Shown here: positions 8,197 to 59,313 of the stretch, in pieces | How positions within the stretch are numbered: position 1 is the first letter of the stretch | How the letters are laid out: each line of letters opens with the position of its first letter | Assembly (NCBI GenBank): GCA_028692395.1 | Contig: JAQUXP010000016.1 | Coordinates: forward strand, 5,600-69,599 | Length of the DNA: 64,000 nt | Source: Lachnospiraceae bacterium | GTDB lineage: Bacteria; Bacillota; Clostridia; Lachnospirales; Lachnospiraceae | Reading direction: 5' to 3' | Program-made: the position numbers and the translations under genes | The notes under the pieces: generated by a model | Seen by the model: only the letters and a program-made list of their open reading frames with translations | Told to the model about the DNA's origin: nothing | Database searches by the model: none

Positions 8197-8235
8197 AAAT
8201 CAGAGCAATTTAGAGATTATTGAAAAACGGACGCA

Positions 8236-8486
8236 GAAAAAGGCTGTCGCACGATGCCGTCCCAGGACAGGAGACTGCTGCCAGACACTGTTTCGGAATC
8301 CAAGAGTATACAAAAAAGAATAGATTTTGCTAAACACGTAAGTATGCAGCACAAACTCGTTTCACTCAAACAGTGTGCTGCATACTTACAACGCAAATTC
8401 TATTCTTTTTGTATACTTAGGATTCCTGCAAATGTGTCTGGCCGCAGTCTCCTGTCCTGGGACGGCATCGTGCGACAGCCTTTTTC
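8236..8486 (+). repeat. long-hairpin repeat family, copy 1 (complete, forward orientation, subfamily A)
   Basis: This 251-bp imperfect palindrome is centred near 8361. Its arms 8236-8288 and 8434-8486 are complementary with one mismatch. It has the conserved junction motifs and apical loop, flanked by an A run and a T run. Confidence 0.9.
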
Positions 8487-16069: not shown

Positions 16070-16086
16070 GTGATGGAAAAACGGAC

Positions 16087-16335
16087 GGGAAGCGCTCGCT
16101 CGCCAAAATGGAGCCCCCCGGGGCGGTTGGCAGAGGACACGGTTTCGGAATCCAAGAGCATCCACAGTGGATTTGATTTTGCGATAGGCGTAAGCGGTCA
16201 GCACAAACTCGCTTCGCTCAGACAGTGTGCTGTCTGCTTACATCGCAAATTCTATTCCACTGGGATGCTTAGGATTCCTGCAAATGTGTCTTCTGCCAAC
16301 CGCCCCGGGGCTCTATTTGGCGAGCGAGCGCTTCC
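16087..16335 (+). repeat. long-hairpin repeat family, copy 2 (complete, forward orientation, distinct outer arms)
   Basis: In this 249-bp imperfect palindrome, GGGAAGCGCTCGCTCGCC pairs with GGCGAGCGAGCGCTTCCC. The junction motifs and apical loop are the same as in the other copies. Confidence 0.9.
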
Positions 16336-16349
16336 CTGGGGTTGGGGAC

Positions 16350-16535
16350 GGTTGGGGGCTGCTCCCTGGCGGGAGGACGCCACCCGCTATATAGGGGAGT
16401 TTGTGGTAGGCGGTTGGGGGGTGCTCCCTGGGGGAGGACGCCTGCTCGGTATATAAGGGAGTTTGTGGTGGGCGCTTGGGGGGTGCTTCCTGGGGGGAGG
16501 ACGCTTGCTCGGTATATAAGGGGGTTAGTGGCAGG
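16350..16535. repeat. tandem repeat, three units of about 62 bp (16350-16411, 16412-16473, 16474-about 16535)
   Basis: Units 1 and 2 are near-identical. Unit 3 contains the stop codon and last codons of the minus-strand CDS 16525..17238. The plus strand is G-rich and the minus strand C-rich. Confidence 0.85.
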
Positions 16536-18975: not shown

Positions 18976-18986
18976 TAATATAGATC

Positions 18987-19037
18987 ACTATTCAGCAGAT
19001 CGGTGCATATACTGCACAGACCGTGAGGAAGTGATAT
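18987..19037 (+). repeat. short repeat B, copy 1 (about 50 nt, contains hairpin GTGCA-tatac-TGCAC)
   Basis: About 39 of 51 positions are identical to 59264-59313, including an identical 15-mer TACTGCACAGACCGT. Confidence 0.6.
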
Positions 19038-19053
19038 AAGAGTGGGGCATATC

Positions 19054-19264
19054 AGTGACCGGAAATCCCTTATGAGGGCGGAACACATTTGCAGAAGTCC
19101 TAAGTATACCAAAACAACCGATTTTGCGTTATAAAAAATCAGCATACTGTCTGAGCACAGCGAGTTTATGTTGATTTTTTATGCTTTTAGCAAAATCGGT
19201 TGTTTTGTGTATACTCTTGGACTTCGAAACCGTGTTCCGCCCTCATAAGGGATTTCCGGTCACT
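19054..19264 (-). repeat. long-hairpin repeat family, copy 3 (complete, reverse orientation, subfamily B)
   Basis: In this 211-bp imperfect palindrome, AGTGACCGGAAATCCCTTATGAGGGCGGAACAC pairs with its complement at 19232-19264. The core motifs are present as reverse complements. Confidence 0.9.
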
Positions 19265-25848: not shown

Positions 25849-27177
25849 ATGGGAAAATGGGGAAAACGTGTAGGCTATGGGATAGGTGATCTGGGATGTA
25901 ACCTGGTTTTCAGTACTATGGCTTCCTACCTTATGGTTTTTTACACAGATGTATTTGGCATATCTGCCGCAGCAGCCGGCACGATGATGCTTGTCACAAA
26001 ATTCATAGATGCAATCACAGATACGGGAATGGGTCTGATTGTAGACCGCACCCACTCCAAATGGGGGCAGGGTAGACCATATTTTCTGTTTGGAGCAGTA
26101 CCTTTTGCATTATTTACCTGCTTAACTTTCGTTATTCCGAACTTTGGAAGCGGTGGAAAGCTGATCTGGGCCTATGTCACCTATTGTCTTCTGTGCACAG
26201 CGTATACCGTGGTTAATATCCCGCTGAATACAATCGTGCCAAGACTTACCTCAGACGTTCACGAAAGAGATGTCCTGGTATCCACGAGAATGGTCTGTGC
26301 GATGGCTGGAACGGCAATTGTAATGACCATCACCTCACCACTGGTCAAATTTTTCGGACAGGGAAATGAAGCAAAGGGTTATCTGATTACGATGACCATC
26401 TACGGCATTGTTGCCATGTTCATCTTCTTTGTGACATTTGCCAGCACCAAGGAAGTGGTGCCTCCCACAGTTCAGCAGAAGCATTCTTCACTGCTGGAGG
26501 ACTTTAAGGGGCTTACAGGACAGGCATGGATTCTGTTCCTGCTGAATCTGTTTTATTTCTCACTGTATGTTGTCAGAAGCACTACTGTCATCTATTATTT
26601 CAAGTATAATCTTGGTAGATCAGAATGGCTGTCTCTGGTAGGAATACTGGGAATCCTGTCCGGACTTCCCATGCTGCTGCTGTTGCCATCACTGGAACGA
26701 AGATTCAGCAAGAAGAATCTGATGTTCTTCAGCATCCTGTTATATGTAGCAGGAGATATGCTTATATTTATAGGAAGAAACTCCGCAGCCTGTCTTTTGA
26801 TTGGACTGGTGATCACTGGTCTTGGCATCTATGGTATTTTCGGAATTACCTTTGCCATGCAGCCGGATGTTATCGACTACTCCGAGTACAAGAAGAACGC
26901 CAGTGTTGCAGGACTTATCGCAGCATTCCAGGGCTTCTTCGTAAAAGGCGGCATGGGCCTGACCAGCTTCGTCATCGGTGTTTTTTTGAAAAATGGCGGT
27001 TATGTGGCGAATGCGGCACAGAGTACAAAAGCACTTTCTTACATAGAGATCTGCTTTATCTGGATTCCGATTATCCTGTGCGTAATGATCGCAGTGCTGA
27101 CCCACTTCTACAAGCTGGATGGTGTCAGAGGCGAGATGACCAAGGAACTGGAGGCCCGGAGAAAGTCAATGCAGTAA
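25849..27177 (+). CDS. MFS transporter, glycoside-pentoside-hexuronide (GPH) cation symporter family
   Basis: The protein has 12 TM helices and the GPH-like N-terminus GYGIGDLGCNLVF...YLMVFYTDVFGIS...DAITD. Confidence 0.8.
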   Translation: MGKWGKRVGYGIGDLGCNLVFSTMASYLMVFYTDVFGISAAAAGTMMLVTKFIDAITDTGMGLIVDRTHSKWGQGRPYFLFGAVPFALFTCLTFVIPNFGSGGKLIWAYVTYCLLCTAYTVVNIPLNTIVPRLTSDVHERDVLVSTRMVCAMAGTAIVMTITSPLVKFFGQGNEAKGYLITMTIYGIVAMFIFFVTFASTKEVVPPTVQQKHSSLLEDFKGLTGQAWILFLLNLFYFSLYVVRSTTVIYYFKYNLGRSEWLSLVGILGILSGLPMLLLLPSLERRFSKKNLMFFSILLYVAGDMLIFIGRNSAACLLIGLVITGLGIYGIFGITFAMQPDVIDYSEYKKNASVAGLIAAFQGFFVKGGMGLTSFVIGVFLKNGGYVANAAQSTKALSYIEICFIWIPIILCVMIAVLTHFYKLDGVRGEMTKELEARRKSMQ

Positions 27178-27201
27178 ATGCACGAACCTATTATTGAATA
27201 G

Positions 27202-27374
27202 TTATCACAAACCAACCGATTTTGCTAAAATCATAAGAAATCAACATAAACTCTCTGTGCTCAGACAGTATGCTGATTTCTTATAACGCAAAACCGGTTG
27301 TTTTGGTATACTTAGGACTTCTGCAAAGGTGTTCCGCCCGCATAAGGGATTCCCCACCACCAAAGTGGGACAGC
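27202..27374 (+). repeat. long-hairpin repeat family, copy 4 (5-prime-truncated, forward orientation, subfamily B)
   Basis: The inner and middle stems, the apical loop and the complete right arm are present. The left junction motif and left outer arm are missing. Confidence 0.85.
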
Positions 27375-27475
27375 TTTATTTTCAATTGTTATTTCTGCGC
27401 TTTATCCATTGTAAAATCATAAATAGTTTGTTACTATTTAACAAGACGGAACCAAACAGCCATAAGGGAGGGTTT

Positions 27476-32629: not shown

Positions 32630-32912
32630 AGGAGGGCTGTCCCACTTCGGAGGCTGTCCCGCAATGCTGCTCCCGGATGGGAGACTGCTGCCAGACACTG
32701 TTTCGGAGTCCAAGAGCATATAAAAAAGAATAGATTTTGCTAAAAACGTAAGTATACAGCACAAACTCGTTTCACTCAAACAGTGTGCTGCATACTTACA
32801 ACGCAAATTCTATTCTTTTTCTATGCTTAGGACTCCTGCAAATGTGTCTGGCAGCAGTCTCCCATCCGGGAGCGGCATCGTGGGACAGCCGCCGAAGTGG
32901 GACAGCCCTCCT
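32630..32912 (+). repeat. long-hairpin repeat family, copy 5 (complete and the longest copy, forward orientation, subfamily A)
   Basis: This 283-bp imperfect palindrome is centred near 32771. It fills the whole gap between convergent genes, starting 13 nt after one stop and ending 3 nt before the other. The right arm runs into TTTTTT. Confidence 0.9.
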
Positions 32913-53656: not shown

Positions 53657-53666
53657 TAAGAAAAAA

Positions 53667-53909
53667 GGGAGTGCCGCACCTGGGGCCTGCAAGGTCCTGC
53701 TCAGCGTCTGCTCACATTTGCAGAAGTCCTAAGAATCCCGGAAGCATCCATTTTGTGTTGTAAGCATCCAGCATACTGTCTGAGCACAGCGAGTTTATGC
53801 TGGATGCTTACGTCTTTAGCAAAATTGATGGTTTCGTGGATTCTCTTGGGCTTCGAAACCGTGAGCAGACGCCAAGCAGGACCTTGCAGGCCCCAGGTGC
53901 GGCACTTCC
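53667..53909 (-). repeat. long-hairpin repeat family, copy 6 (complete, reverse orientation, distinct outer arms)
   Basis: In this 243-bp imperfect palindrome, GGGAGTGCCGCACCTGGGGCCTGCAAGGTCCTGC pairs with its complement at 53876-53909. It is flanked by an A run and a T run, and the core motifs are present as reverse complements. Confidence 0.9.
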
Positions 53910-53916
53910 TTTTTCT

Positions 53917-58165: not shown

Positions 58166-58997
58166 AAGAAAGAAAAAGATAAGCACTGGAAGAATCTTAT
58201 TGTACATCGTGTTAAGTCTTGGAGCTGTTCTGATGGTAATGCCTTTCGCATGGACCGTGTTAAGCTCTCTGAAGAATATGGGACAGACGTTTGCCATTCC
58301 CATGAAGATACTGCCGGATCCCTTCGTATGGAAGAATTATCCGGAATCCCTGGCAGCACTGCCCTTTGGACGGGCTTACTTTAACAGCTTTTACATAGCC
58401 TTTGTGGTGGTTGCCATACAGCTGATCACAGCGTCTATGGCGGGGTATGCATTTGGAAAATTAAAATTCCGTGGACATAATGTGCTGTTTATCCTCTTTT
58501 TGGCAACCATGATGATTCCTTCTCAGGTCACCATGATTCCACTGTTTATTATTATGAAGAATCTGGGATTATTAGGAACGCATATGTCCCTGATTTTACC
58601 TGCATCGCTGTTCAATGCGTTCGGAGTCTTCCTGATGCGGCAGTTTATCGCCGCACTGCCGGATGAACTGGAGGAAGCAGCAATTATAGACGGAGCCAGT
58701 ATTCCACAGATTTTCATAAAGATTATTCTGCCGCTGATCAAACCGTCTATGGCAGCATTTGGTATCTTCGTATTCCTGGGACAGTGGAACAGCTTCCTTT
58801 ATCCATTGATCTTCCTGAATAAGACAGAATCCTTTACGGTGCCGCTGCTGCTTAACTTCTTCAAGGGAACCTATGCCACAGATTATCCTCTGTTGATGGC
58901 AGGAACTGTTATTTCCATAGTGCCGGTACTGTTAGTTTATCTGTTTTTCCAAAAGCAGATCATCCAGGGTATCGCCATCACCGGTATGAAAAATTAA
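58155..58997 (+). CDS. carbohydrate ABC transporter permease (MalG-like)
   Basis: The EAA loop reads LEEAAIIDGASIPQIFIKIILPL. The gene overlaps the upstream permease by 11 nt. Confidence 0.85.
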   Translation: MNSKRKKKISTGRILLYIVLSLGAVLMVMPFAWTVLSSLKNMGQTFAIPMKILPDPFVWKNYPESLAALPFGRAYFNSFYIAFVVVAIQLITASMAGYAFGKLKFRGHNVLFILFLATMMIPSQVTMIPLFIIMKNLGLLGTHMSLILPASLFNAFGVFLMRQFIAALPDELEEAAIIDGASIPQIFIKIILPLIKPSMAAFGIFVFLGQWNSFLYPLIFLNKTESFTVPLLLNFFKGTYATDYPLLMAGTVISIVPVLLVYLFFQKQIIQGIAITGMKN

Positions 58998-59006
58998 AAA
59001 AATTAG

Positions 59007-59146
59007 ATAAAAAAGAATAGAATTTGCTAAAAACGTAAGTATACAGCACAAACTCGTTTCACTCAGACAGTGTGCTGCATACTTACAACACAAATTCTAT
59101 TCTTTTTCGTATGCTTAGGACTCCTGCAAATGTGTCTGGCAGCAGT
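59007..59146 (+). repeat. long-hairpin repeat family, copy 7 (5-prime-truncated, forward orientation, subfamily A)
   Basis: The copy starts 9 nt after the permease stop. It has the inner stems, apical loop and right junction motif, but lacks the left junction and both outer arms. Confidence 0.85.
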
Positions 59147-59263
59147 GGGAAAAGAAGTTCGCTCTTGCTGAAACAGGAAGAAACCGATACAATAGATACA
59201 GGTGATTTTAAATAGTGTTTCGAATGTAACTGGTCAGGTACTGAACAGTTAAGTTGGCAGGTA

Positions 59264-59313
59264 ACTATTCGGCGGGTTCGTGCATTTACTGCACAGACCG
59301 TAAGAAAGGATAT
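59264..59313 (+). repeat. short repeat B, copy 2 (runs into the RBS and start of the AraC gene)
   Basis: It is homologous to 18987-19037. See the matching finding. Confidence 0.6.

Follow-up and report, generated by a model that had tools for sequence, protein, structure and literature searches.

How does a long hairpin stay paired while its sequence changes? The question arises from a palindromic repeat at positions 8236-8486 of a 64,000-nucleotide stretch of Lachnospiraceae DNA (the window, by which we mean the whole stretch analyzed). An earlier note, based on a manual alignment of two copies of this repeat, reported six substitutions in the outer stems in which both partners had changed and pairing was kept. 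It suggested as the cause either selection on a folded molecule or repair of one arm of the palindrome from the other. Here, we ask whether the paired changes are real, what kind of element carries them, and how far each of the two causes accounts for them.

Paired changes between copies 1 and 5

The arms compared are 47 nt each and lie at 8242-8288 and 8434-8480 in copy 1 and at 32652-32698 and 32844-32890 in copy 5. In this register, 46 of 47 positions pair in each of the two hairpins. Position-by-position scoring recovered all six compensatory doubles as they had been described: from copy 1 to copy 5, G-C became C-G at 8249/8473, T-A became C-G at 8260/8462, C-G became T-A at both 8261/8461 and 8268/8454, A-T became C-G at 8264/8458, and A-T became G-C at 8269/8453. 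Neighboring pairs were altered jointly at 8260-8261 and again at 8268-8269. Also present are the differences that completed the original tally: two G-T wobbles on the forward strand, at 8251/8471 and 8258/8464, and one A-C mismatch, at 8253/8469. All nine of the differing stem positions listed there stand, but the total is ten, as 8279/8443, a T-C mismatch in copy 1 and a T-A pair in copy 5, had been missed. The extra outer module ascribed to both arms of copy 5 is also real, with GGGCTGTCCCAC at approximately 32635-32646 and its mirror, GTGGGACAGCC(C), at 32897-32908.

Over the whole element, copies 1 and 5 differ by eight compensated pairs, one uncompensated double, and five single changes; of the 29 unpaired sites, only one differs. 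When these 23 stem substitutions were placed at random, compensated pairs averaged 0.46 and reached 5 at most, and eight or more were obtained in none of 200,000 trials (P<5e-6). Misregistration was checked in a core alignment of ten copies, in which 89% of cells were paired as opposed to 35-48% when the partners were slid by one to three columns. Given the 46/47 pairing, the outcome of the random trials, and the collapse of pairing in slid registers, it is exceedingly improbable that the pattern is an artifact of a misregistered alignment or of chance.

Anatomy of the family

The two copies belong to a family of dispersed giant imperfect palindromes in gut Lachnospiraceae that is absent from the catalogues searched. 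Full members are 210 to 285 nt long, and their stems total at least 100 bp per element. The family sample is small (about 11 distinct copies), and ten of these were used to build the core alignment and a consensus fold. The conserved core, of approximately 160 nt, comprises helices P2, P3, and P4, fixed mismatches, bulges, a 7/3-nt loop, and an apical loop of approximately 20 nt (AAACTCG..TCARACA, 8354-8373 in copy 1), and it is closed by an outer stem, P1, of 27 to 65 bp.

Two motifs delimit the interior of the core. The left motif, CACKGTTTCGRARYCCAAGAG (8286-8306, plus strand), is conserved across the copy alignment and contains the 5' halves of internal loop 1, of the 7-bp P2, and of loop 2; it has five exact matches in the window where 0.01 would be expected. 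The right motif, CTTAGGAYTYCTGCAAAKGTG (8416-8436, plus strand), has seven exact matches in the window against an expectation of 0.00. Together they form the 7-bp helix P2, flanked by fixed mismatches and bulges, and a T-C mismatch and an A-A mismatch were present in all eight full copies scored. The intervening segment (8307-8415, plus strand) was assigned by the alignment and consensus fold to the variable helices P3 (approximately 24 bp) and P4 (approximately 16 bp), the 7/3-nt asymmetric loop, and the apical loop; the spacing between the motifs was 109 nt in each of the five full window copies.

Compensatory double changes were found in 31 of the 48 core pairs of the ten-copy alignment, a level of covariation reached by none of 500 shuffles, and cells changed on both sides numbered 87 versus approximately 11 changed on one side. 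The asymmetric loops, as aligned, were conserved in every copy from all genomes. A covariance model scored the copies at 114 to 182 bits in the forward direction and at less than 50 bits in reverse, so the asymmetry of the element has a fixed polarity. P1 is built differently: its sequence is wholly different between subfamilies, and in every copy the left arm almost matches the reverse-complemented right arm. The outer stem is thus constrained in its pairing only, its sequence being free to change.

None of 4,227 Rfam models matched the 64-kb window at gathering thresholds, and a permissive search returned only subthreshold miRNA-like hairpins (best score of 29 bits against a threshold of 57). 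The family also had no sequence match in phage, plasmid, viral-contig, and E. coli collections. Several candidate features of the element were rejected. A conserved small open reading frame failed because copy 5 has ATA where copy 1 has its ATG. Copies 1 and 3 both contain TTAGCA-17-TATACT, which resembles a promoter, on their reverse strand, but this sequence falls within the covarying P3 and is not conserved in copies 2 and 6. Comparison of the conserved loops with known RNA motifs (the k-turn, the 11-nt tetraloop receptor, and the sarcin-ricin motif) gave nothing convincing.

Copies in the window

Seven copies, five full length and two truncated at the 5' end, occur in the window. Copy 1 (8236-8486, plus strand; 182 bits) consists of an A-run (8237-8241), P1 with the core inside it (8242-8288 / 8434-8480), and a T-run (8481-8485), and its predicted folding energy is -179 kcal/mol as RNA (z=-28) and -113 kcal/mol as DNA (z=-24). 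Copy 5 (32630-32912, plus strand; 179 bits), of the same subfamily, A, equals copy 1 with the extra mirrored outer module and a T-run. The outer stem of copy 2 (16087-16336, plus strand; 169 bits) is unrelated in sequence to that of copy 1, although the 5' tail GAAAAACGGAC is common to both. This outer stem carries asymmetric bulges of 1 to 2 nt; their being tolerated indicates that perfecting of the outer stem is not absolute. Copy 3 (19054-19264, minus strand; 180 bits) represents subfamily B and has a 33-bp outer stem, and copy 6 (53661-53915, minus strand; 167 bits) has an outer stem of its own with A-run and T-run flanks.

Both truncated copies have close full-length kin. Copy 4 (27197-27385, plus strand; 123 bits) begins where P3 begins, shares 92% identity with copy 3 across 158 nt, and retains the right outer arm, the GTGGGACAGC module (27365-27375), and the T-run, with no left partner for any of them. 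Copy 7 (58999-59146, plus strand; 121 bits) belongs to the subfamily of copy 5 and abuts a stop codon at 58997. Although they come from different subfamilies, the two are truncated at nearly the same position, to within a few bases: P3 starts there, just after a conserved CCAAGAG. No orphan left halves were found in the window. This common point may be a preferred breakpoint or a cleavage site, as judged from two cases only. Identities within subfamilies (92% for copies 3 and 4, 92-95% for copies 5 and 7, and 90% for copies 1 and 5) show that units reaching into the outer stem have been copied recently.

Wherever the 11-nt module GTGGGACAGCC or its complement occurs in the window, it forms the outermost layer of a copy: copy 1, copy 5 (where it appears twice), or copy 4. 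The positions are 8242-8252, 8470-8480, 32635-32662, 32880-32907, and 27365-27375. The module spans two subfamilies with different inner stems and always adjoins a T-run, and no free-standing copy exists in the window.

Other repeats were observed in the neighborhood of the hairpins. Directly after copy 2, between convergent genes, are three tandem copies of a 62-nt G-rich unit, CGGTTGGGGGGTGCTCCCTGGGGGAGGACGCCTGCTCGGTATATAAGGGAGTTTGTGGTAGG (16349-16535), for which Rfam gave no match. A second repeat of approximately 50 nt occurs at 18982-19031 and 59259-59308, with a partial inverted copy near 27177-27196; it contains a small hairpin, GTGCAtaTACTGCAC, followed by AGACCGT, and lies within about 110 nt of copies 3, 7, and 4 in inconsistent relative orientation. 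In addition, four copies from three genomes have an unpaired 5' tail, with ACGGAC in it, ahead of the hairpin, at 8223-8234 and 16075-16086 (GAAAAACGGACG, copies 1 and 2) and, in two loci introduced below, at L003 3517-3526 and approximately L042 3075-3084 (CTGACGGACAG). This tail may be part of the element or a preferred target.

Copies in other genomes

Exact-motif scans of genomes and metagenomes located copies elsewhere. Two (L001 and L002) were found in a single Lachnospiraceae metagenome-assembled genome (MAG), and one further locus was recovered 14 times from human-gut metagenomes (L003 to L016), with an orthologous copy (L042; 148 bits) at the same place in a sister species of that carrying L003. 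No window copy has the 150-nt 3' tail seen in the L003 copy. The right motif alone yielded only two short copies among 185,579 species representatives and no autonomous parent element. Approximately 100 kb from the three closest sampled relatives of the source organism contained no copy of the family. The source organism is a poorly sampled member of the Lachnospiraceae: the closest L25 proteins to its own are 67-72% identical, and the only other contig found with one of its proteins, assembled from the short reads of SRR22315505, breaks at the repeat. A separate observation from a related Lachnospiraceae MAG (L025 3379-3628) is an array, of 53-nt period, of a 38-nt unit, TACGTATCAAAATGACAAATCTTGCTTTTTGATACGTA, that has a score of approximately 79% against its own reverse complement and is unrelated to the giant-hairpin family.

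The proposal that pairing is maintained while the sequence drifts was upheld in these other genomes. L001 and L002 differ by three compensated pairs where 0.16 would be expected (P=2e-4), and the adjacent pairs at positions 26-27 changed together. Within the 29- to 30-bp outer stem of L003 and L042, each of five substitutions and a 1-nt indel in one arm has its mirror image in the other, and a single G-T is left over. This last pair is the most informative, since the copies are orthologous. The compensatory pattern is therefore replicated in three independent pairs.

Genomic context

The window is ordinary chromosome, with sugar-utilization operons, the gene for ribosomal protein L25, transporters, and regulators, and none of the open reading frames scanned in its 64 kb encodes a transposase, integrase, recombinase, or reverse transcriptase. 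Each of the seven window copies directly follows a stop codon. Copies 1, 2, 3, and 5 are placed between convergent genes, and copies 4, 6, and 7 are in tandem contexts and co-oriented with the genes. An A-run and a T-run bracket copies 1, 5, and 6 (three of the five full window copies), a T-run follows the terminal module of copy 4, and no clear T-run follows the GC-rich stem of copies 2 and 3 or of the L003/L042 copy.

At the junction in one of the three closest sampled relatives (L021) that is syntenic with the L25/LarC junction, a plain bidirectional terminator stands instead of the element. The L003 copy lies between pepT and an operon for an ECF sigma factor and an anti-sigma factor, and the 3' end of pepT in more distant relatives (L029 and L031) likewise carries plain bidirectional terminators. 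Since the elements are found where relatives have bidirectional terminators, our best guess is that the hairpin is functional at a terminator position, acting in transcript 3'-end formation, as a terminator, or as an insulator. Clostridial operons are known to contain large stem-loops that govern processing and stability (PMC10311766). We also observed an unusually long terminator hairpin after the L25 gene of another relative (L018 7685-7765), with 35-nt arms that are 94% complementary; its sequence includes GGGACAGG, which recalls the GGGACAGCC module present in copies 1, 4, and 5, possibly by coincidence.

The L003 locus is also variable. Strains of one Lachnospiraceae species common in the human gut differ in whether they have a 2.3-kb segment (L003 3517-5825 versus L032 2730-2747) that holds the hairpin, the ECF sigma factor, and a 453-amino-acid protein without a Pfam match, which is probably the anti-sigma factor. 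The breakpoints on the hairpin side fall in an 8-nt direct repeat, AGGGTTGT. The L032-type strains were considered as an empty insertion site, a reading rejected on the grounds that 12 nt of the sigma-operon leader and roughly the final 10 nt of the anti-sigma gene are still present in them; they are better read as deletion derivatives. The repeat itself is compatible with slipped-strand deletion or with excision at an old target duplication.

Polymorphism and conservation

Among the 14 metagenomic samples of the L003 species, the 224-nt element carries one single-nucleotide polymorphism, in the apical loop. By comparison, the same samples have 25 in 270 nt of the adjacent pepT coding sequence (p=2e-6 versus the element) and 11 in 267 nt of the 3'-flanking intergenic DNA (p=0.015 versus the element). 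Between L003 and L042, the core is approximately 96% identical by a count from the alignment, as against 65% for neighboring intergenic DNA and 87-88% for the flanking genes, and the outer stem has diverged by approximately 20%, more than half the intergenic rate, while still paired. On these sequence comparisons, the orthologous copy is clearly under purifying selection in two species. The low polymorphism, the conservation between species, and the conservation of the loops are together unlike what a decaying selfish insert would show.

Conservation of the loops also bears on how the two causes might be told apart. It had been suggested that gene conversion between the arms would erase the conserved asymmetric loops and that selection on structure would spare them. 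This test is uninformative, because the loops are clearly under selection of their own, and it cannot separate the two causes. As for the choice that the earlier note had left open between selection on a fold and templating of the arms, the evidence gathered here suggests that both act.

Probable arm-to-arm templating

Judging from the sequence patterns, pairing seems to be kept by selection helped by copying from arm to arm. The double changes probably arise in single steps by intrapalindrome template switching, a view read from the form that the changes take. Isolated G-T pairs on the element strand do not exceed A-C pairs (8 versus 12), and neither strand folds consistently better, with six of eight copies folding slightly better on the opposite strand. 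Mirrored indels or modules occur in copy 5, in L002, and in L003/L042, and these would not readily result from independent mutations filtered by selection on RNA. The joint change of adjacent pairs, the rarity of one-sided changes in the core, and the divergence of an outer stem that nonetheless stays paired are further signs of a DNA-level source. Template switching is an established process that perfects quasipalindromes and creates multibase compensatory changes; it has been documented in bacteria, and compensatory changes in RNA stems have been traced to it (PMC8794818, PMC7202029).

Other reasons for parts of this pattern can be given. The missing G-U excess might instead reflect a need for hairpins between convergent genes to fold on both transcripts, and selection alone could fix compensated pairs where populations are large and linkage is tight. 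An apparent bias of G-T pairs toward the leading (plus) strand (9 versus 2, p=0.065), in a window with a GC skew of +0.12 throughout, was set aside, as the count becomes 9 versus 4 when the tandem G-T pair of copy 6 is included.

Discussion

The explanation that we favor, with about as much doubt as confidence, is that of a terminator-position hairpin whose core is a recognition module, whose helix is selected, and whose double changes come from template switching. The hairpin would form the 3' ends of transcripts or terminate them, often serving two convergent genes at once, and the conserved asymmetric core would be the module recognized by some factor. Selection would keep the helix uninterrupted, and the doubles, together with the mirrored indels and modules, would be single mutational steps in which one arm was copied from the other during replication. 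A bolder version, which we regard as distinctly unlikely, would make the family a new class of structured nucleic acid, a self-propagating, self-perfecting mobile terminator that is selected by the host once installed. The 160-nt core would then be a folded recognition module for undiscovered protein or RNA machinery, and the element would seed itself at operon ends, act there as a terminator-like insulator, and lengthen or renew its own closing helix by arm-to-arm templating.

Three further readings account for part of the evidence. A purely RNA-level element (a structured noncoding RNA or an element of the 3' untranslated region, such as a protein-binding RNA or a small RNA derived from that region), compensated in two steps and with no templating at the DNA level, draws on the strong covariation throughout, the loop nucleotides conserved on both sides, the fixed polarity of the covariance-model scores, and the strong conservation of the orthologous copy. 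Orientation is in keeping with it as well: of the tandem-gene contexts that allow a judgment, copies 4, 6, and 7, L003/L042, and probably L002 point the same way as the gene upstream, and only L001 does not, but this 5-to-1 count is not significant. We nevertheless consider the reading unlikely: G-U pairs are not enriched over A-C pairs, most copies fold slightly better as the opposite strand, Rfam holds no match, mirrored 1-nt indels and modules of 11 to 20 nt are very improbable products of independent mutations, and the outer-stem divergence of approximately 20% is fast for a route through deleterious intermediates. The conservation of the ortholog weighs differently on the proposal that the family is a selfish, nonautonomous mobile element moving as a folded single strand, in the manner of REPIN/RAYT, IS200/IS605 ends, or attC. 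In that case, the core would be a recognition site for a transposase or recombinase and the terminator positions would be tolerated insertion sites. Seven copies in 64 kb, the young subfamilies, the lack of copies in the sampled DNA of the closest relatives (with a plain terminator at the syntenic site), and the presence or absence of the element among strains of one species, with the 8-nt repeat at the breakpoints, are what such an element would leave behind. Its truncated copies have lost only the 5' side, both at the same point, its conserved mismatches and bulges are like the features by which folded-DNA recombination sites are recognized, and compensatory changes are likewise seen in REPINs (PMC3116915). 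However, an orthologous copy far better conserved than neutral DNA, with a single copy per species as sampled, is unexpected for a decaying selfish insert, and the 8-nt repeat is equally explained by slipped-strand deletion. The 64 kb contain no transposase, recombinase, or reverse transcriptase gene, the termini are not conserved, the window copies lack target-site duplications, the architecture, with its conserved center and variable ends, is the reverse of that of a REPIN or MITE, and the phage, plasmid, and viral collections have no matches. On balance, we think it unlikely that mobility of this kind explains the family.

The outer stems could also owe their complementarity to an earlier existence as hairpins and not to maintained pairing, if the core inserts at the apex of existing hairpins and is later copied with part of the old stem. 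The layering of P1 invites this idea: in every pair open to comparison (1/5, 3/4, 5/7, and L001/L002), the inner P1 is shared and the outer P1 is different yet palindromic, the outermost layers of copies 1, 5, 6, and L002 resemble split terminators (A-run, GC stem, and T-run), and terminators occupy these sites in relatives, with arms of 35 nt in one case (L018). Such capture leaves unexplained, however, the mirrored changes inside segments common to the copies and those that arose in place at the orthologous L003/L042 locus. Outside the elements, the window has no long simple hairpins, its ordinary terminator-like hairpins being short, and the module GTGGGACAGCC was confined to elements and never seen as an empty copy. 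We therefore hold capture to be improbable. Like intrinsic terminators and clostridial stem-loops (PMC10311766), the elements lie directly after stop codons and between convergent genes, and at orthologous sites they replace ordinary terminators; in contrast, intrinsic terminators have stems of 5 to 15 bp, against at least 100 bp in total here, and intrinsic termination does not need a conserved internal core. One-step, multibase mirrored changes that perfect an imperfect inverted repeat are produced by template switching in quasipalindromes (PMC7202029, PMC8794818) and fit the adjacent doubles, the mirrored indel, and the mirrored modules, but as a mutational process template switching leaves the conserved asymmetric loops and the dispersal of the copies unexplained.

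Among cataloged repeats, the nearest kind is the hairpin-forming extragenic repeats, and the family is not a member of any named family; it is filed outside them because it lacks the defining features of REPINs and of MITEs. REPINs (REP-BIMEs), which are mobilized by RAYT in Proteobacteria, resemble it as dispersed noncoding hairpin repeats, often at the 3' ends of genes, with lineage-specific expansion. Some REPINs have been co-opted for transcript 3'-end functions. The two nonetheless differ in host, the present family being from Firmicutes, and in plan: REPINs are approximately 70 to 110 nt long, with conserved REP units at both ends and a variable spacer, whereas the family is 210 to 285 nt long with a conserved center. 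A hairpin with compensatory changes, reported for REPINs (PMC3116915), is indeed found here, but two conserved inverted terminal REP units are not, as the ends differ completely between subfamilies. No gene for RAYT (a Y1 transposase) is among the window open reading frames scanned. E. coli genomes carry REP/BIME and ERIC repeats, and a search of E. coli genomes for the family gave no match.

ERIC/IRU, Correia, and BOX/RUP repeats are, like the family, multicopy intergenic imperfect palindromes predicted to fold; stem-loop repeat families of this sort have been surveyed and may act at the RNA level (PMC2267715). The present elements are short, noncoding, multicopy, and variably present, as MITEs are. 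Unlike the ERIC, Correia, BOX, and MITE-like families, they have no conserved terminal inverted repeats, their termini being the least conserved part, and no target-site duplication, with no direct repeat above shuffle expectation at the borders of the window copies; they do have a fixed polarity, strongly conserved loops, and an ortholog clearly under purifying selection in two species. Integron attC sites are similar in that structure is conserved while stem sequence varies and in that extrahelical bases and mismatches give polarity. These sites are 57 to 141 nt long, with conserved terminal core sites (R''/R', GTTRRRY) and a variable center, and adjoin cassettes in an integron. The family, in comparison, has a conserved center, variable ends, a length of 210 to 285 nt, and ordinary chromosomal neighbors.

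In sum, the family is an unusually clean natural case of long helices that stay perfectly paired during sequence turnover, and it combines in one element a core constrained in sequence with a stem constrained in pairing only. The mirrored changes, together with the orthologous pair and the natural polymorphism, make selection and template switching separable experimentally. The case also carries a warning: palindrome dynamics at the DNA level can create or inflate covariation, which by itself is usually taken as proof that an RNA helix is functional. For the Lachnospiraceae, an important and poorly annotated family of the gut, these hairpins add an uncataloged class of repeats and structured elements.
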